This document shows, one piece after another, positions 1,311 to 33,764 of a DNA stretch of 64,000 nucleotides. The first letter of the stretch is position 1, and each line of letters opens with the position of its first letter. Below the pieces are notes generated by a model that did no database searches, was not told the DNA's origin, and saw nothing but the letters and a program-made list of their open reading frames with translations. Both the position numbers and the translations under genes were made by a program. The stretch is from an uncultured Methanosarcinales archaeon (GTDB lineage Archaea > Nanobdellota > Nanobdellia > Woesearchaeales > GW2011-AR9). The stretch is from assembly GCA_964576385.1 (NCBI GenBank), contig CAZNUS010000002.1, forward strand, positions 7,844-71,843. The letters run 5' to 3'.

Positions 1311-1538
1311 TTACGCAGGAGAAATAATAGTAATAGTATCTCCTCTGATAAATACTTTCCCTAATTTTCTTTTTAATTCGCCATTCTGATGCTCTTCTGC
1401 ATCTTCCAATACAGTATTGATATGAATATCAAATGCTTTTAATTTCCCAAGATATCGGTAACCATTTTTTAGGTCAACCATCACTGTCTTATTTCTGGCA
1501 GCATTTAATGCGTCTAAAGGTCTTGCTCCTTCATCCAT
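1311..1538 (-). CDS. Sm-like archaeal protein (SmAP/LSm)
   Basis: 75 aa. The Sm1/Sm2 fold pattern is present (VMVDLKNGYRYLGKLKAFDIHINTVLEDAEE...KVFIRGDTI). It sits upstream of rpl37e. Confidence 0.85.
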   Translation of the reverse strand: MDEGARPLDALNAARNKTVMVDLKNGYRYLGKLKAFDIHINTVLEDAEEHQNGELKRKLGKVFIRGDTITIISPA

Positions 1539-1692
1539 AATTACACCCCCTGTAACTTTATTGGTTAGAATGTATGTGCTATATAAATCTTTGCTTTATT
1601 AACGAAGAAACTTACACAGCAAACAAATCTGTAAAAATATATACATATCTCTATTTATCTTTTTACTCTTTTCTAGACATTATAGTTTCTAC

Positions 1693-1836
1693 GTACGTAT
1701 TAAGTTGTTGGCCAAGAGGTCAATTTTGCTGAACTATCGTGACAGGAACAGATGTGAAAATCTTCGAAATAACTGTTATTTTCAGTCAACATCACTTCAT
1801 ATTTTCACCAAAATGGACGGCCAACTTAATACGTAC
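1693..1836. mobile_element. MITE-like element, copy 1
   Basis: 144 bp. The 14-bp terminal inverted repeat gtacgtattaagtt/aacttaatacgtac is perfect and extends through ttggcc/ggccaa. It is flanked by the 8-bp direct repeat gtttctac at 1685-1692 and 1837-1844. It is about 75% identical to the 17099-17243 copy. Confidence 0.6.
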
Positions 1837-1880
1837 GTTTCTACGAAACTATTATAAAGAAAAACATAGTTTGTACTTTT

Positions 1881-2441
1881 ATGGTTGATTTTCAAAAATT
1901 ACAAGAAGATATTCATCGCTATGATGAAGAGCGTGAAAAATTAATTAAGAAGAGCCGTGATGTTCTAAAGTTAAGTAAACTGATTATTTATGCTGTGCAT
2001 CGTGACGAGCTAACGAATGCTGCTAAGCTTGTAAAGCAGATAGAAACCGAAAAAAAAGCGTTAGATAAAATTTCTCAACATAGTGATAAGATGGGTACTG
2101 AAGGAAGTTATAAGGTCGCTATACAAGAATATGTCGAAGCAGTGTTGTATTATGAATTCGTTAAAACCGGAAAACTTATTGACATAACCGTTTCTGCTGA
2201 ACATTTTGTCCTAGGATTAGCTGACCTGCCCGGGGAATTAACAAGAAGAGCTGTATTTTTAGCAGGAAAAGGCAAAGTTGATGATGTAAAAAAGATTGCT
2301 GAACAGGTTGATTTTATTTATGGTGAGTTGTTAAAATTTGATTTTAGAGATAATGAAATTAGACGAAAAGTTGACTCTGTTAAATATGAATTAAGAAAAC
2401 TGGAAGATTTAGTTCTTGATTTAAAACTAAAAGGAAGATAA
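1881..2441 (+). CDS. Translin-family protein (putative)
   Basis: 186 aa, all-helical composition. Motifs resemble translin: SRDVLKLSKLIIYAVHR, QEYVEAVLYY and GLADLPGELTRRAV. Assigned from memory of the family, not from a search. Confidence 0.5.
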   Translation: MVDFQKLQEDIHRYDEEREKLIKKSRDVLKLSKLIIYAVHRDELTNAAKLVKQIETEKKALDKISQHSDKMGTEGSYKVAIQEYVEAVLYYEFVKTGKLIDITVSAEHFVLGLADLPGELTRRAVFLAGKGKVDDVKKIAEQVDFIYGELLKFDFRDNEIRRKVDSVKYELRKLEDLVLDLKLKGR

Positions 2442-3845: not shown

Positions 3846-4189
3846 TGCTAGAAGATATTTACCATGCAATCTTGGACAAACCCGGTGTCTCTTATATTCC
3901 AGGTGATTCTGAATCGCTTACAATATCTGGACCACATGAACGGCTACGTTTGTACTCTGAAGGAGGAAAACTATGGTTAGATTATCATAAGCATGGTAAA
4001 GCCCCAGTAATATTAACAGAAATGAAGCTTCCCATAGCACATCAAGGTAATTTAGGAGATCGTGCCTTTCGTATGATTAGAGAAGAATTAGGTAGGGATA
4101 GTACAGCTGACCGTGTAATCCTGCAATTAAACTCTGAAAAAGTAGGACAGCTAACTAGACGTTTAGAAGAATTTTGTAGCTTTATTTAG
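3845..4189 (+). CDS. hypothetical protein
   Basis: 114 aa ORF. The TAATG stop/start overlap with the upstream gene suggests translational coupling. Confidence 0.4.
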   Translation: MLEDIYHAILDKPGVSYIPGDSESLTISGPHERLRLYSEGGKLWLDYHKHGKAPVILTEMKLPIAHQGNLGDRAFRMIREELGRDSTADRVILQLNSEKVGQLTRRLEEFCSFI

Positions 4190-5153: not shown

Positions 5154-7649
5154 ATGAAGCAATCATCAATTAGATATATGTTAGTTCTTTTGATATTAAT
5201 AGTTCTGTCATTTTTTGTTTTTGCCGAAGATTTAGATAATGCTGAAGAAACAGAAAATGTAGAGGAACTCTCAGATACCGGTGTAAATTCAGATGATACT
5301 CTTTATGATGAAGAGTTTGATAGGATTACTGTAGAAGGCATTTATGATGATGTAGATGAAGTTCAATTAGAAGGGGAAGCTGGGATGACTCCCGACAGTG
5401 GATTATATTTCTTAGAAGAAATTGTCGAGAGTGTTCTAGTAGGCGATGACCCTGAAACTGCTTTAAAGTATAAAGAAGAAAAAATATTGGAAGCTAAAGA
5501 GATGGTAGAGTCAGGAAATGAAGAAGCTGCCGAAAAAGCCTTATCTAATGCAGAGGAATATAACACTATCATCAAAGAAGAAGTTTCTCCAGAAATAGAG
5601 ATGAAAGTAAGGGAAAGCAGCAAAGCTGTAAAAATGGTCTTAGAAGATTTTGACCTAGAAGATGAAAAGTGGGGAGACATTAGGGAAACTGTTGATGAAA
5701 ATCTCCAACAAGAAGATAAAGTTGCTTTGGCTGCAAAAATTTCCAGCAAGATCGCTGGATTATGTAAAGTCCTATCCGATTTAGATCCCTTAGAGTATTC
5801 AAAGATATGTAGGACTGATGATGATGCTCCAAAATGGAAACAGGATTTAGATAAAGAATTGACTGCAGAACAGGAAAAAGAAGCCAGGGAATTCTTTGAA
5901 ATAATGTCGGAATGCTTCCAAAACCCTGGAGAGTGTAGATGCAATGATATTACGATTAAACCATTTGCTGAAAAATGCAGTACTATTGCTCCTCTAGCAG
6001 CTAAGTGTGAAGAAGGAGATGAACGTGCTTGTGGGGATATGGAAAAAGCAGGAGACCCTATAGATTTATTGCCGGACTATCTGCAAGATGTGATGGAAGA
6101 TGTTGAAGATAAGTATAGTGAAGCAAAGTATGATCTGCATATGCCCAGTGAATGTGTTAAAGAAGGCGCATTGACTAGGGAAGCTTGTATGAAAGTTATG
6201 TTTAGGCTTAATGCTCCTGAAGAATGTCAGCAGGCTTTAGAAAATGGGGATATCAACCCTAAAAATGAAAAAGAGGCCCGAGAAGCATGTGAAAGAATAA
6301 TGTTTAATAGTGAAGCACCTGATGAATGCAGAGAAGCAGGTTTGACCGATTTTAGAAGTTGTGAGAGGCATATGTTTAAGTTAGAAGCTCCTCCAGAATG
6401 TCTAGATGCCGGTTTGACTGGCTCGGGCAAAGATGACTGGAAAAAATGTGAACAGATCAGATTTAAGATAGATGCTCCACAAGAATGCTTGGATGCTGGA
6501 CTAACTGGGCAAGGTCGTGACGATTGGAGGAAATGTGATGCTCTCAGGTTCCGCTTAGATGCTCCTCAAGAATGTTTGGATGCTGGTATAGATGGTTCTG
6601 GGAAAGACGACTGGAGAAAATGCGATGCTATAAAATTCAAGCTTGATGCTCCTCAGGAATGTTTAGATACTGGATTAGATGGTACGGGAAGAGATGATTG
6701 GAAGAAATGTAATGTTATCAGATTTAAATTAGAAGCTCATCCTGATTGTCTTGCTGCTGGATTGACTGGGGCAAGGGATGATGATTGGAAAAAGTGCAAT
6801 AGTATTAGATTTAAATCAGAAGCTCCTGAAGAATGCCAGCAATTTGCTAACGAACGTGATCCTTGGAAATCCTGTCAACCTCTCCAATTTAGAAAAGATG
6901 CCCCTCAAGAATGCCTAGACGCTGGTTTAGACGGCACGGGCAGAAATGATTGGAAAGAGTGCGATAAGATTAGGAAGGAATTAGACGGGAAAGAACAGCA
7001 ATCAGAAGAGATGGATAATTCTGGTGAAAATAATGGCAATGAGCGAGAAGATCAGCAACAGCGGAATGGAGAAGATTCTAATAATGGAGAATGGTCTAAT
7101 GATAGAGAATCCTCTAATGAATGTTCCAATGGTTGTTCAGATGAATGCGGTGATAAACAATGGGACTGCTCAGCTGGAAGATGCGAATGTTTCTCTGATG
7201 ATAATCGCGACGATTCGAGAGATTCTGGTTCAGATGGTTCTCATTCCGATGGAACTGGTTCAGGCAGCGATGGAGGGTCTAGCGATTCAGGTGGCGATTC
7301 AGGATCTAGTGGTGATTCCAGTTCTGGAAGTGGGGAAGATTCATCTGGCAGTTCTGGAGAATCAAGTAGGGATGGTCCTAGTTCAGATGATTCGACTTCA
7401 GATGGTTCTGATTCAGGCAGCGATTCAGGATCTAGTGGTGATTCAAGTTCTGAAAGTGGATCTTCATCTGATTCAGGCAGCGATGAAAGCTCTAGTGATT
7501 CTGGATCTAGTAGCGAAGTTTCTTCTGATGATTCTTCTTCTTCAGGAGAGGCCATTACTGGATCTGCAACAAAATTTGTTTATTCAGGTAATTCCGGAGA
7601 AAATCGTTTCCGAAAGCTTGGTAACTTAAATTACTTTTACAGTGATTAA
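5154..7649 (+). CDS. Large secreted acidic repeat protein (about ten tandem ~35-aa two-Cys repeats plus an SD-rich tail)
   Basis: 831 aa. N-terminal signal/TM, then an acidic region. About ten tandem copies of AP-x-EC-x12-14-C-x3-(R/K)F(K/R)(L/I)(D/E), for example APQECLDAGLTGQGRDDWRKCDALRFRLD. Then a Cys cluster and a ~200-aa Ser/Asp/Gly low-complexity tail. Confidence 0.6.
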   Translation: MKQSSIRYMLVLLILIVLSFFVFAEDLDNAEETENVEELSDTGVNSDDTLYDEEFDRITVEGIYDDVDEVQLEGEAGMTPDSGLYFLEEIVESVLVGDDPETALKYKEEKILEAKEMVESGNEEAAEKALSNAEEYNTIIKEEVSPEIEMKVRESSKAVKMVLEDFDLEDEKWGDIRETVDENLQQEDKVALAAKISSKIAGLCKVLSDLDPLEYSKICRTDDDAPKWKQDLDKELTAEQEKEAREFFEIMSECFQNPGECRCNDITIKPFAEKCSTIAPLAAKCEEGDERACGDMEKAGDPIDLLPDYLQDVMEDVEDKYSEAKYDLHMPSECVKEGALTREACMKVMFRLNAPEECQQALENGDINPKNEKEAREACERIMFNSEAPDECREAGLTDFRSCERHMFKLEAPPECLDAGLTGSGKDDWKKCEQIRFKIDAPQECLDAGLTGQGRDDWRKCDALRFRLDAPQECLDAGIDGSGKDDWRKCDAIKFKLDAPQECLDTGLDGTGRDDWKKCNVIRFKLEAHPDCLAAGLTGARDDDWKKCNSIRFKSEAPEECQQFANERDPWKSCQPLQFRKDAPQECLDAGLDGTGRNDWKECDKIRKELDGKEQQSEEMDNSGENNGNEREDQQQRNGEDSNNGEWSNDRESSNECSNGCSDECGDKQWDCSAGRCECFSDDNRDDSRDSGSDGSHSDGTGSGSDGGSSDSGGDSGSSGDSSSGSGEDSSGSSGESSRDGPSSDDSTSDGSDSGSDSGSSGDSSSESGSSSDSGSDESSSDSGSSSEVSSDDSSSSGEAITGSATKFVYSGNSGENRFRKLGNLNYFYSD

Positions 7650-13468: not shown

Positions 13469-13568
13469 ATTTATAGCGGTGGAAGTAAATAATTATATGT
13501 TTATTCACTGCTATATCCAGAGGAAATTACTCTTTAGCTATACGAATATTAATTTCCTTTCGTATAAT
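13469..13568. repeat. Intergenic repeat family 2, copy A
   Basis: About 100 nt, roughly 80% identical to 25444-25541. The shared blocks are atttatagcgg.ggaag.aaata, gctatat.cagag.aaattactc and atattaatttcct.tcgtataa. Confidence 0.6.
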
Positions 13569-17050: not shown

Positions 17051-17098
17051 TGTGTATAATCCGCATATATACAAAGACTATAATCCTTTAGAAGAATC

Positions 17099-17243
17099 GT
17101 ACGTATTTAGTTAGATGGCCAAGAGGTCAATTCTGCTAAGCTATAGTGACAGGCACAGATGTGAAAATCTTCGGAATCATTACTATTTCTGATAAGAATT
17201 ACTCCAGATTTTCACCAAAATTGACGGCCAACTAAATACGTAC
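17099..17243. mobile_element. MITE-like element, copy 2
   Basis: 145 bp with TIR gtacgtatttagtt/aactaaatacgtac, flanked by the 8-bp direct repeat gaagaatc at 17091-17098 and 17244-17251. The internal core is conserved with copy 1: ggccaagaggtcaatt, gtgacagg and gatgtgaaaatcttcg...attttcaccaaaat. Confidence 0.6.
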
Positions 17244-17264
17244 GAAGAATCTAGTAAATGCATA

Positions 17265-18272
17265 TCATTTTAGCCGTATCTTATTGGTGTTTCCATAAGG
17301 AATCTTCTCGATTAGGCCCTTTAACTCCAAATTTCTTACTTTACGGGAGAGTTTTACTTTAGAAAGACCTGTTTTCAAAGCCAATTGTTTCTGCCATAGT
17401 TCCTGTTGCGGTGCATTAAATAATATTTCAATAATCAGCTTCTCTTCTTCAAATAGGTTTCTAGTTAGCTCTTCTTTGGAACGTAGTAATTCTTCTTTTT
17501 TTTTACTATCTCTGGTTGTAATGATTTCTGCAGAATTTTTATTTTTGTTAAATTTATGAGATAGGTTAAACCCCTGTACATTTAGTTTTTCAAATAGTCT
17601 ACTTTTATTTCTAAAAAATAATAGACTTATACCTAAGGCGATAAACACAATAATAACAGTTAGCTGGAGAAGCAACTTTATTTCTGGGCTATTAGGTTGA
17701 TCATATATTATCATCATAGCTTTATTGCTGATGATATGCTTCTCGTTCCAAGAGATGATTACATTCCTGCCGTTGGTCTGAACCAGATCTGTTTTTGGGA
17801 TGATGGATGGTGTCGGTGATTGCAAACTATGTTTTAATATAGCTCCTTCGGGAAGAATGACATTTACCTGAATTCTCTTAGCATCTAATTCTCCTAGGTC
17901 TAAAATAAAATAGTCATCTCTACTTTCTTCGATTAAGGATTCCGTGATATATTTTAAGGTGAACTGTTTAAACAACTTGTTGCTTTTGAGAACTATCTCA
18001 GTGTAGTCTTTAGAAGGGTTTAATTCAAAATTAACACTATGTACTTCTATTGCTTTGGCGTCAAGTGGCAGGATGAGATGATATTGAGAATGGTATGCTA
18101 AAAAAGAGATATTCTCTTCAACTATAATTTTATCACCAATAATTGTATAGGTCCCTTGATAGCTATCAATTTCTTCCTGACCTGTTTTCGCTGGAGAAGT
18201 ATTTTCTTCCGCTAATGCTATCCCTGACAAGAACAGTAAGATAAGACCTGTGACTTGAAGTAATTTGTTCAT
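17265..18272 (-). CDS. Membrane-tethered winged-helix regulator with large extracytoplasmic domain
   Basis: 335 aa. Signal peptide, a ~190-aa outside domain, one TM helix and a C-terminal wHTH (LSKVKLSRKVRNLELKGLIEKIPYG). Confidence 0.5.
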   Translation of the reverse strand: MNKLLQVTGLILLFLSGIALAEENTSPAKTGQEEIDSYQGTYTIIGDKIIVEENISFLAYHSQYHLILPLDAKAIEVHSVNFELNPSKDYTEIVLKSNKLFKQFTLKYITESLIEESRDDYFILDLGELDAKRIQVNVILPEGAILKHSLQSPTPSIIPKTDLVQTNGRNVIISWNEKHIISNKAMMIIYDQPNSPEIKLLLQLTVIIVFIALGISLLFFRNKSRLFEKLNVQGFNLSHKFNKNKNSAEIITTRDSKKKEELLRSKEELTRNLFEEEKLIIEILFNAPQQELWQKQLALKTGLSKVKLSRKVRNLELKGLIEKIPYGNTNKIRLK

Positions 18273-25443: not shown

Positions 25444-25541
25444 ATTTATAGCGGCGGAAGCAAATATGTGTAGTTTATCCGGCGCTATATTCAGAGAAAA
25501 TTACTCATTAGATCTCCGGATATTAATTTCCTCTCGTATAA
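25444..25541. repeat. Intergenic repeat family 2, copy B
   Basis: About 80% identical to 13469-13568. Confidence 0.6.
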
Positions 25542-28274: not shown

Positions 28275-28392
28275 CTTAGTAGCGAACGTTAATTTCATTC
28301 TGTAGTAGCGAATATTAATTTTATTCTAATAATTTGTCGCTACTAGGTATAAAAAACATAACTATTTAGATTATTAATTCTGTTTTTTAGTA
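28275..28392. repeat. Intergenic repeat family 3, copy 1
   Basis: Hairpin tagtagcga...tcgctacta, with the 5' arm duplicated. A 41-nt block aaaaacataactatttagattattaattctgttttttagta matches 31523-31563 with one mismatch. Confidence 0.6.
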
Positions 28393-31423: not shown

Positions 31424-31563
31424 AACATTATTTTATTTTAATGATTTATCGCTACTATACTCTAAAATAACCCTCAGTTATTTTATGTACAAAAATGAAT
31501 AGTTTTTCATTTTTTGTATATCAAAAACATAACTATTTAGATTATTAATTATGTTTTTTAGTA
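31424..31563. repeat. Intergenic repeat family 3, copy 2
   Basis: Hairpin tagtagcgaaca...atcgctacta plus the conserved 41-nt block ending in a T-run. Confidence 0.6.
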
Positions 31564-31628: not shown

Positions 31629-33764
31629 ATGGTAAACTACCAATGTCCTAAATGCGGGATGAAATACAGCCTGCCCGGAAAGTGTACCATGGATGGTGCA
31701 AAGCTGATTAAACAGGAAGATCAGAAATATCCTTCTTCTTCTTCTGGTGTTCAAAAAACCAATCATAGAATGCATCGAAATTATAAACTGCATCAAGATG
31801 GTGAACATTCTAGGAATCATCATTCGCATCACGAAATGATGGTTCGGGATTTTAAGAAAAGATTCTTTATTTCCTTAGCGTTGACTTTTCCTGTACTTTT
31901 GCTAACTCCTTTGGTTCAAAAAGTACTTGGGTTGAATATCACTTTTAAAGGGGATATTTATGTACTATTTGCACTATCAGCAGTAGTGTTTTTTTACGCT
32001 GGATTACCGTTTCTTAAAGGAAGTATAGACGAATTAAAAAACAAGCTTCCGGGAATGATGACCTTGATTGCTACCGCTATTAGCAGTGCTTTTATTTATA
32101 GTTCTATAGTTGTATTTGGGCTGAAGGGAGAAATATTTTTCTGGGAACTAGTTACTCTTATTGATATAATGCTTCTGGGGCACTGGATAGAAATGCGTTC
32201 AGTAATGGGGGCTTCTAAAGCTTTGGAAGCGCTGGCAAAACTGGTGCCTTCTGAAGCCCATTTGGTAAAAGGAAAAAGAATAATGAATGTTCCTATTTCT
32301 AATTTAGTTCCAGGTGATATTGTTTTAGTTAAGCCGGGAGAAAAAGTACCTTCTGATGGAATTATCTTTCGTGGGGAGAGCAGCTTAAATGAATCAATGT
32401 TAACGGGGGAGTCAAAACCAGTAAGCAAAAAAAAAGGAGATAAAGTAATCGGCGCTTCCATTAATGGGGAAGGGGCTTTATACATAAAAATAACTAATAC
32501 CGGAGAGAAAACTTACCTTTCACAAGTAATTCAATTAGTTAAACAAGCGCAAGAATCAAAATCAAAAACTCAGGATTTAGCTAACAGAGCAGCTACTTGG
32601 TTGACTCTGATTTCAATTTCTATTGGAACTCTTACGCTGGCCCTATGGCTTATGCTTGGAAAAGATCTTGCATTTGGTCTGGAAAGGATGGTAACTATTA
32701 TGATTATTACTTGTCCCCATGCTTTAGGTTTAGCAGTTCCTTTAGTTGTGGCCGTATCTACTGCAATATCTGCAAAAAATGGTTTTCTTATTAGAGATAG
32801 AGTTGCTTTTGAGAATATTAGGGATATAGATACGATTGTTTTCGACAAGACAGGGACTCTTACTAAAGGTGAGTTTGGCGTAACTGATATAGTTACCGAT
32901 GGATTAACTAAAAAAGAAGTATTGTTTTATGCTGCATCATTGGAGATTAATTCAGAGCATCCTATCGCTAAAGGTATAGTCAAAAAGGCAACAGAAGAAA
33001 GGATAAGGATTGGTAAGACTAAAAAATTTAAGGCTCTTCCAGGAAAGGGTATTCAGGGTGTTATTGGTAAGAAAGATATAATGGTGGTTGGTCCTTCCTA
33101 TCTTGCTGAAAAAGGCATAAAGCCAAATAAGATCAGCATTGAATTAGAACATCAAGGAAAAACAGTAATTTACATTCTTATTAAAAATAAGCTATTTGGA
33201 GCAATAGCTCTTGCTGATATCATCAGAGAAGAATCAAAGGAAGCAATCAGTACCTTAAAATCCATGGGGATAAAATGTATGATGTTAACTGGTGATAATC
33301 AAAAAGTTGCTGAATGGGTTTCTAAAGAATTAGGGTTGGATGATTTTTTTGCAGGAGTTCTACCAGATCAGAAAGCTAAAACGATCAAAAAGATTCAATC
33401 AAGAGGGTTAAAAGTAGTCATGGTAGGAGACGGTGTAAATGATGCTCCAGCGTTGGTGCAGGCCGATGCAGGTATCGCTATTGGCGCTGGAACGGACGTT
33501 GCTATAGAATCTGCTGATATAGTTTTAGTCAGGAATGATCCTCGTGATGTTGCTTCAATAATAGGTTTAGCTAAAGCAACGTATTCCAAAATGAAACAAA
33601 ATTTACTATGGGCTACTGGATATAATATTGTTGCTATCCCTCTGGCAGCCGGAGTGATGTATCACCAAGGGTTATTATTAAGCCCTGCTTTAGGAGCAGT
33701 ATTTATGTCTTTAAGTACGATCGTTGTAGCTATTAATGCCCGGCTGTTAAAGCTAAAGAAGTAA
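31629..33764 (+). CDS. copB: P1B-type heavy-metal ATPase, CopB-like (CPH motif, His-rich N-terminus)
   Basis: N-terminal CPKCG...C zinc-ribbon-like segment, then a His-rich stretch (HRMHRNYKLHQDGEHSRNHHSHHE). TM motif ITCPHALGLAVP. DKTGT and GDGVNDAP are present. Confidence 0.9.
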   Translation: MVNYQCPKCGMKYSLPGKCTMDGAKLIKQEDQKYPSSSSGVQKTNHRMHRNYKLHQDGEHSRNHHSHHEMMVRDFKKRFFISLALTFPVLLLTPLVQKVLGLNITFKGDIYVLFALSAVVFFYAGLPFLKGSIDELKNKLPGMMTLIATAISSAFIYSSIVVFGLKGEIFFWELVTLIDIMLLGHWIEMRSVMGASKALEALAKLVPSEAHLVKGKRIMNVPISNLVPGDIVLVKPGEKVPSDGIIFRGESSLNESMLTGESKPVSKKKGDKVIGASINGEGALYIKITNTGEKTYLSQVIQLVKQAQESKSKTQDLANRAATWLTLISISIGTLTLALWLMLGKDLAFGLERMVTIMIITCPHALGLAVPLVVAVSTAISAKNGFLIRDRVAFENIRDIDTIVFDKTGTLTKGEFGVTDIVTDGLTKKEVLFYAASLEINSEHPIAKGIVKKATEERIRIGKTKKFKALPGKGIQGVIGKKDIMVVGPSYLAEKGIKPNKISIELEHQGKTVIYILIKNKLFGAIALADIIREESKEAISTLKSMGIKCMMLTGDNQKVAEWVSKELGLDDFFAGVLPDQKAKTIKKIQSRGLKVVMVGDGVNDAPALVQADAGIAIGAGTDVAIESADIVLVRNDPRDVASIIGLAKATYSKMKQNLLWATGYNIVAIPLAAGVMYHQGLLLSPALGAVFMSLSTIVVAINARLLKLKK

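Follow-up and report, generated by a model that had tools for sequence, protein, structure and literature searches.

Within the 64,000-nt stretch of DNA analysed here (the window), positions 17099-17243 form a 145-bp non-coding element of the MITE type, with GTACGTATTTAGTT at its start and AACTAAATACGTAC at its end. A sister copy lies in the same window, and the differences between the ends of the two (...TATTAAGTT / AACTTAATA... in copy 1, ...TATTTAGTT / AACTAAATA... in copy 2) are matched from left to right, so that the 14-nt terminal inverted repeat is perfect in each. The question raised by this locus is what keeps the two ends of such an element complementary. Two answers were offered in the initial annotation: either each copy is maintained as a hairpin, possibly doubling as a structured small RNA, or the two ends are homogenised. 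The answer that we consider probable is that the element is a MITE, a non-autonomous DNA transposon, and that matched transposase-recognition ends are selected in its active lineages.

Copies, target sites and genomic context

Proteins encoded in the window include LSM, translin, argininosuccinate synthase, P-type ATPases, and FtsZ. The host is a DPANN archaeon of the Candidatus Woesearchaeota, a member of which has a protein 100% identical to the translin. Copy 1 sits between the divergent genes for LSM (1311-1538, minus strand) and translin (1881-2441, plus strand), 7 nt upstream of a ATTATAAAG box in the translin promoter that is conserved upstream of translin in relatives. Copy 2 is found between two convergent genes, 22 nt past the stop codon of the gene at 17265-18272. 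In a relative with an 80% identical translin, four contigs (L034-L037) start, over their first 100-190 nt, inside the C-terminus of a DDE transposase-like ORF located directly upstream of the conserved translin promoter box; there, the promoter-proximal spot of copy 1 is taken by a different insertion sequence.

The span first assigned to the second copy, 17091-17251, is exactly the element plus both 8-bp duplications (Table 1). Its terminal inverted repeats were recovered as inverted-repeat matches at 17099-17112 and 17230-17243. The window holds just four exact matches to the terminal 14-mer, GTACGTATTWAGTT, one at each end of the two copies; with up to two mismatches allowed, there are six matches versus 0.95 expected, and none of 100 shuffles reaches six. 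A covariance-model search of every window position returned copies 1 and 2 and no further match. The identity of the two copies, initially put at ~75%, was measured as 82.8% over the element with gaps counted as mismatches (81% ungapped over 138 nt).

Table 1. Coordinates, in the window, of the two copies and of the structural parts of copy 2
Feature	Position	Strand	Remarks
Left target-site duplication of copy 1, GTTTCTAC	1685-1692	+	
MITE copy 1 (W1), 144 bp, A-type ends	1693-1836	+	covariance model R1, 151.2 bits
Right target-site duplication of copy 1, GTTTCTAC	1837-1844	+	
Left 8-bp target-site duplication of copy 2, GAAGAATC	17091-17098	+	same 8-mer on either flank
MITE copy 2 (W2), 145 bp, T-type ends	17099-17243	+	covariance model R1, 152.6 bits, E = 1e-34
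Helix 1, left arm, terminal inverted repeat	17099-17111	+	13 pairs with 17231-17243; paired in all copies
Helix 2, left arm, TGGCC	17116-17120	+	partner 17226-17230
Helix 3, left arm, GTCAATTCTG	17126-17135	+	partner 17216-17225
25-nt left-arm bulge without right-arm partner	17136-17160	+	partly conserved, C..A...AT.....C..G.ACA
Helix 4, left arm, GTGAAAAT	17161-17168	+	partner 17208-17215, ATTTTCAC
Apical region, variable	17169-17207	+	no invariant column among 39; in subfamily II, shorter by 22 nt
Right arm, unbroken 36 nt	17208-17243	+	3' strands of helices 4, 3, 2, and 1
Right 8-bp target-site duplication of copy 2, GAAGAATC	17244-17251	+	

Scanning metagenome contigs with a terminal pattern yielded five full-length copies (L020-L024), all intergenic and at unrelated sites, on contigs that encode archaeal proteins (PCNA, a fused primase, ribosomal protein S6e). 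Together with W1 and W2, they form two subfamilies. Subfamily I (W1, W2, L022, and L023) consists of copies of 143-145 bp that are 72-84% identical, and subfamily II (L020, L021, and L024) of copies of 121-122 bp that share 96-99% mutual identity and are ~62% identical to subfamily I. A distant relative (L064/L065) scores 41 bits with the covariance model. The L024 copy was found in all four assemblies of its population. The orientation of the copies with respect to flanking genes is mixed, and they occupy promoter-proximal positions as well as spacers between convergent and between co-directional genes; for several, the distance to a start or stop codon is 11-50 nt, and co-transcription is predicted.

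An 8-bp target-site duplication flanks all seven copies, each time with a different sequence. Three of the seven duplications are perfect, three have one mismatch, and that of L024 matches over 7 bp; thus, among L020-L024, one is perfect and three carry one mismatch. W1 and W2 are regarded as recent insertions because their duplications are perfect. Read in element orientation, the duplications begin with G in seven of seven cases, and the last base is variable; this suggests an asymmetric target preference, consistent with non-equivalent element ends.

Other assemblies of the same organism break within the element. Contigs JACPNB010000122, 083, and 093 (GCA_016185745.1) and a Logan contig from run SRR12113431 encode proteins identical to those of the window and end inside window copies, which is the expected behaviour of dispersed repeats; the MITE copies account for the short-read assembly breaks of this organism at these sites. 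The FtsZ-bearing contig also ends within the window and so added no DNA of the source genome, and look-ups of window proteins near the right edge found no record. A public-assembly contig ends inside the ORF at 5154-7649 (plus strand), which encodes 831 amino acids with several DGTGKDDWKKC-like repeats and long Gly/Ser/Asp-rich repeats, its sole Pfam match being DUF5667, under the family threshold. In relatives with a 78-80% identical translin, no copy is present and the LSM-translin spacer measures 94 or 168 nt versus 342 nt in the window, and relatives of the L024 organism, which lack the element there, have 128-139 nt at the S6e site, where L024 has ~1.2 kb including the element; at both sites, the relatives are only 78-80% identical in protein, so that the flanks are not alignable base for base.

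Wider searches were largely negative. Approximately 190 kb of relatives' contigs, retrieved via translin and S6e homologues, held one distant relative (L064/L065) but no further close copy, and a second covariance model that included the distant relative found no additional copy in 264 kb. An internal 18-mer gave 18 matches in one genome per species, about the chance number (the public assembly of this organism breaks inside the element, one base short of this 18-mer); its two archaeal matches, L012 and L015, proved to be unrelated coding sequence. Two scans of viral contigs with right-end patterns produced chance matches only, as confirmed with the covariance model, and similarity searches of a plasmid collection and a phage collection returned no match to the element.

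The copies, 121-145 bp long, share no reading frame and have stops in most frames. A protein-coding reading was rejected: the one frame that is open in copy 1 is interrupted in copy 2 by a stop at codon 4. Six-frame peptides of five copies had no homologue at E <= 1 among 5.8 billion proteins. Rfam gave no match in the window at gathering thresholds, and permissive Rfam searches reached at best 13-22 bits against thresholds of 40-94; a C/D-box sRNA was set aside, as the weak matches fall within the variable apical region and the copies do not have them in common. The proteins of the window that were scanned include neither a transposase nor a RAYT-like gene product, and no autonomous element with these termini was seen in the window, the fetched loci, or the viral contigs; the patterns scanned against the genome and metagenome collections are blind to full-length elements with differing ends. 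The initial assignment to the MITE class holds: inverted repeats, duplications, several copies, and no coding capacity are all present, as the structural definition requires, and an autonomous partner is the missing item.

Several other repeats were noticed in these sequences. In three of the five metagenome loci, the MITE lies inside, beside, or ~220 nt from a double-hairpin repeat (L020 3900-3995, L022 1030-1420, and L024 9708-9815) that is composed of two small hairpins, GTAAACCAAC-N20-GTTGGTTTAC and GTCCAACA-N20..57-TGTTGGAC, with TATAG-like pentamers at its borders. In L024, this repeat splits a nucleotidyltransferase-like ORF, whose frame is restored when the repeat and one TATAG are removed; it resembles a palindromic element of the IS200/IS605 type (PATE-like). 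In L020, a degenerate relative of the MITE (3868-4062; 15.5 bits; ends GTATGTATCAAGTT ... AATTTAATACGTAC) is separated by 8 bp from the subfamily II copy; it encloses the double-hairpin repeat, forming a repeat nest. The window itself contains an intergenic repeat of ~95 nt at 13473-13567 and 25447-25541 (plus strand; 83% identical), with a TATA-like TTTATAGCGG at the start, a hairpin GGAAATTA...TAATTTCC, and no Rfam match, and the pair could represent paralogous small-RNA genes or a common regulatory element. It also contains a palindromic 45-nt repeat, AAAAACATAA-N16-TTATGTTTTT, at 28348-28392 and 31519-31563 (96% identical), the second copy of which is located 65 nt upstream of the P-type ATPase gene at 31629-33764 and is operator-like.

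Foldback architecture and covariation of the arms

All seven copies share one fold, an interrupted long hairpin whose four helices (alignment columns 1-13/133-145, 18-22/128-132, 28-37/118-127, and 63-70/110-117) comprise 36 pairs. The left arm is the right-arm sequence broken by bulges of 4, 5, and 25 nt, which are present in every copy. The largest bulge has nine invariant columns of 25 among the seven copies, and the apical regions of subfamilies I and II cannot be aligned with each other. Helix 3 of copy 2 contains a single C.A mismatch (column 35/120). The distance of helix 4 from the terminus is 63-70 nt on the left and 29-36 nt on the right. The idea that the subfamilies arose separately, each as a foldback of a single IS end, was rejected, as the left-arm bulges are homologous across subfamilies.

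This architecture clarifies the internal blocks that had been described as conserved. The complementarity noted for the last two, GTGAAAAT (17161-17168) and ATTTTCAC (17208-17215), is confirmed, and they pair in predicted folds as helix 4; gtgacagg is common to the two window copies only and not to the family, and ggccaagaggtcaatt is not one block, being composed of helix 2 (GGCC), the AAGAG bulge of 5 nt, and the first bases of helix 3 (GTCAATT).

The joint change of left and right end variants, first noticed between two copies, holds in all seven full copies, and none of them shows the uncorrelated ends that had been named as evidence against it. In particular, the A/T difference at column 10 is matched at column 136 in seven of seven copies, as U-A in four and A-U in three. 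Two-sided changes also occur deeper inside the element, as a covariance analysis of these copies reveals: pair 36/119 is G-C in L023 and U-A in the other six copies, and the helix 4 pairs 64/116, 65/115, and 70/110 switch jointly between GTGAAAAT/ATTTTCAC in subfamily I and GCAAAAAC/GTTTTTGC in subfamily II. In total, five of 36 pairs have two-sided changes in the seven copies, and 99.2% of cells are paired. The covariation score was reached by none of 500 column shuffles, and sliding the partner columns by 1-3 positions left no two-sided changes. When the distant relative L064 is added, the number of such pairs rises to 12 and helix 4 appears in a third complementary version, CAAAAAAC/GTTTTTTG, in an alignment that was fitted to the covariance model and is therefore biased towards the structure. 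The independent covariation events are few, because three of the five pairs all mark one subfamily split, and any mechanistic conclusion is based on seven close copies and one distant one.

The stems are conserved in sequence as well as in pairing. Among the seven close copies, 26 of the 36 pairs show no variation at all; invariant columns make up 57 of 72 stem positions versus 14 of 73 unpaired ones (Fisher p = 2e-13), and the contrast persists when only the left-arm bulges are used for comparison (p = 2e-4). W1 shares 71 of 72 stem positions and 41 of 72 loop positions with L022, and 68 of 72 and 52 of 73, respectively, with W2. The near-identical, young copies L020, L021, and L024 differ by three stem and two loop changes, which is the same rate, and none of the stem changes is compensated. 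Constraint thus seems to act on propagating lineages and not on resident copies, judging from the loop-biased differences between W1 and W2 and the uncompensated changes in young copies.

The ends of the element vary in a manner of their own. Three characters are linked in the T-type ends of W2 and subfamily II, namely columns 10 and 136 and, within a bulge, an additional A at column 15. Unlike its ends, the interior of W2 groups with that of W1; ends therefore behave as discrete types that are independent of the interior. These end types suggest recombination between elements or matching with variant transposases, as far as seven copies allow.

The clustering of matched changes is what a process without selection might also produce, in which the arms are homogenised by intramolecular template switching at the quasi-palindrome or by gene conversion from arm to arm. 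In bacteria, the correction of quasi-palindromes by template switching is a well-established source of mutations. It would fit the joint change of three of the eight helix 4 pairs as well as the co-travelling of column 10, column 136, and the column-15 indel as an end type. However, copying one arm from the other would erase the bulges, and the 4-, 5-, and 25-nt bulges of the left arm persist in both subfamilies and can still be made out in the distant relative, so homogenisation is unlikely to be the main cause. Moreover, six one-sided changes have been left uncorrected, the column-15 indel lies in a bulge and has no partner from which it could be copied, and the greater sequence conservation of stems than of loops would be left unexplained. 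The proposal that the ends are homogenised is hard to reconcile with the persistent bulges and uncorrected mismatches, and we regard it as a long shot.

The other early proposal was that each copy is maintained as a hairpin and may double as a structured small RNA. In an RNA form of this proposal, the host would select the hairpin, each copy being kept as a small RNA or as a hairpin that affects transcript ends or transcript stability. Predicted folds are indeed strong, on both strands and with RNA or DNA parameters (z between -4.3 and -7.2 relative to shuffles): for copy 2 as RNA, -39.6 kcal/mol (z = -4.5) is predicted, and for its opposite strand, -49.5 kcal/mol (z = -7.2). The covariation is real, the copies near stop or start codons are predicted to be co-transcribed, and the one-sided stem changes, read in window orientation, comprise four G.U versus one C.A, as RNA pairing would favour. 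In addition, RNA-level effects have been documented for Correia and ERIC elements (PMC10969869), and compensatory changes have been described for bcr1 (summarised in PMC3184786). Against a host RNA, however, the excess of G.U (four of five changes) is not significant (two-sided p = 0.375), and the better-folding strand is the minus strand in subfamily I and the plus strand in subfamily II, so that the predicted folds favour no consistent strand. The copies face either way relative to flanking genes and occupy heterogeneous contexts, no Rfam family matches, and inspection by eye found no ATTATAAAG-like promoter box inside the element. Furthermore, young copies change in stems as fast as in loops and are not compensated, and the stem sequence itself is conserved beyond what pairing demands. 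The suggestion that each copy is maintained as a hairpin or structured small RNA is thus not upheld, and we consider selection on a host RNA very unlikely.

Probable selection on propagating lineages

Selection on transposition competence accounts for the evidence better than selection on a host RNA does. According to the mechanism that we prefer, a putative transposase would move the element in trans, cutting the target with an 8-bp stagger. The ends would be the long inverted repeats, that is, the unbroken 36 nt on the right and the same sequence with bulges of 4, 5, and 25 nt on the left, and one transposase would have to recognise both. Lineages would keep multiplying only while both ends match; as a result, subfamily differences would appear as matched changes on both arms, and arm sequence would be conserved. 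After insertion, a copy would be freed from this selection and would decay. The hairpin, which both strands can adopt either as RNA or as single-stranded DNA, would then be a by-product of the architecture and not a selected trait, although read-through transcripts of a copy may incidentally be affected by it. That the stems are kept in sequence, and not in pairing alone, is a prediction of recognition of both ends by one protein, since a structural constraint would tolerate more variation. From these patterns we infer the kind of transposase and end recognition as the selective agent; covariation and the differing conservation of stems and loops, by contrast, were observed directly.

Four points weigh against this explanation. 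No autonomous element with these ends and no transposase was found among the window proteins scanned or in the fetched loci. If helix 4 is a protein-binding site, it is spaced differently at the two ends. Its three perfectly complementary versions would fit selection for pairing better than a fixed binding sequence. Finally, the ratio of four G.U to one C.A leans towards the RNA model, though not significantly (p = 0.375).

The helix 4 data are one reason to consider that the foldback is needed for movement itself, for instance via a single-stranded DNA intermediate that snaps back on the lagging-strand template, in which case active lineages would keep pairing along the whole stem. Three different versions, each perfectly complementary and at unequal distances from the termini, would fit such a requirement. 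As single-stranded DNA, copy 2 has a predicted fold of -26.2 kcal/mol (z = -5.9), and folding of both strands is as a DNA-level property would give; uncompensated decay of young copies would place selection on propagating lineages only, which fits the preferred explanation equally well. However, the stem sequence is over-conserved for a purely structural role, with 26 of 36 pairs unvarying in the seven close copies, and the three bulges are retained in all copies though they weaken the hairpin. An 8-bp target duplication combined with inverted repeats is the signature of DDE transposases acting on double-stranded ends; the known single-strand transposases (IS200/IS605 family) are not known to leave a duplication. 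Duplications of 8 bp are made by families that include IS1595, IS256, ISL3, IS6, IS66, and the ISH1 group of IS5. Taken together, a snap-back intermediate appears unlikely.

Selection of pairing itself, whether through a snap-back intermediate used by an 8-bp-duplicating transposase or through an RNA hairpin at gene ends of the DPANN host, is likewise improbable; it is kept under consideration because of the three complementary versions of helix 4 and their unequal distances from the termini. If pairing were selected, the family would be a tractable case for hairpin-dependent transposition or for MITE domestication in DPANN archaea, and a snap-back intermediate together with 8-bp duplications would be an unusual combination.

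With selection for matched transposase-recognition ends as the preferred explanation, compensatory changes in a mobile foldback may reflect the element's own propagation, and alone they are no sign of an RNA gene. Moreover, a MITE family of Woesearchaeota, whose mobile elements are otherwise known mostly from bulk surveys, is now bounded by its ends, 8-bp duplication, and foldback, and comprises at least two subfamilies and a distant relative.

Comparison with known mobile repeats

MITEs are on record in the archaea Sulfolobus, Halobacterium, and Haloquadratum, and a foldback whose transcripts form stable stem-loops is a textbook feature of prokaryotic MITEs (PMC10969869, a review). In a large survey, a 'Woesearchaea' genome ranks among the archaea of highest MITE density, with 105 per Mb (PMC11602168). 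The element resembles other prokaryotic MITEs in its size (121-145 bp), terminal inverted repeats, duplication, non-coding character, intergenic location, several copies, and stable predicted stem-loop; in contrast to them, it has no match in Rfam or in the plasmid or phage collections and no known cognate insertion sequence. The complementarity of the foldback arms is real, but it is an already-known property of MITEs and not evidence for a new RNA gene.

A close parallel is bcr1 of the Bacillus cereus group, a mobile repeat of ~155 bp with flanking short direct repeats, in which compensatory base-pair changes preserve the double-stranded structure and structural stability has repeatedly been lost in single copies (summarised in PMC3184786). 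The mobile repeat, flanking direct repeats, and compensatory changes that preserve pairing are common to both. The bcr1 repeat differs in being bacterial, with 5-bp repeats, a cruciform of two independent stem-loops, and demonstrated transcription, whereas the present element has an archaeal host, an 8-bp duplication, and one long interrupted foldback predicted from sequence.

REPINs, which are hairpin-forming REP doublets, likewise combine two conserved inverted ends with a variable spacer and can fold into a long hairpin as single-stranded DNA or RNA. Their mobility depends on RAYT tyrosine transposases, and they are not known to leave a target-site duplication. Unlike REPs and REPINs, the element has 8-bp duplications at all copies, and the window proteins scanned include no RAYT-like gene product. 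Compensatory changes are common in REPINs and have been ascribed to selection on the replicating element, not to a cellular function (PMC3116915).

Correia elements (NEMIS, Neisseria) and ERIC (enterobacteria) are likewise foldback MITEs and serve as the model of how a MITE can also act as an RNA element; the present family shares no sequence similarity with them, and its hairpin is predicted. Correia elements duplicate TA, not 8 bp. Both kinds, at 100-160 bp, form RNA hairpins when co-transcribed, and RNase processing and effects at the mRNA level have been shown by experiment (PMC10969869, PMC3184786). Lastly, the PATEs derived from IS200/IS605 elements carry subterminal hairpins and have neither inverted repeats nor a duplication, whereas the element described here has both.
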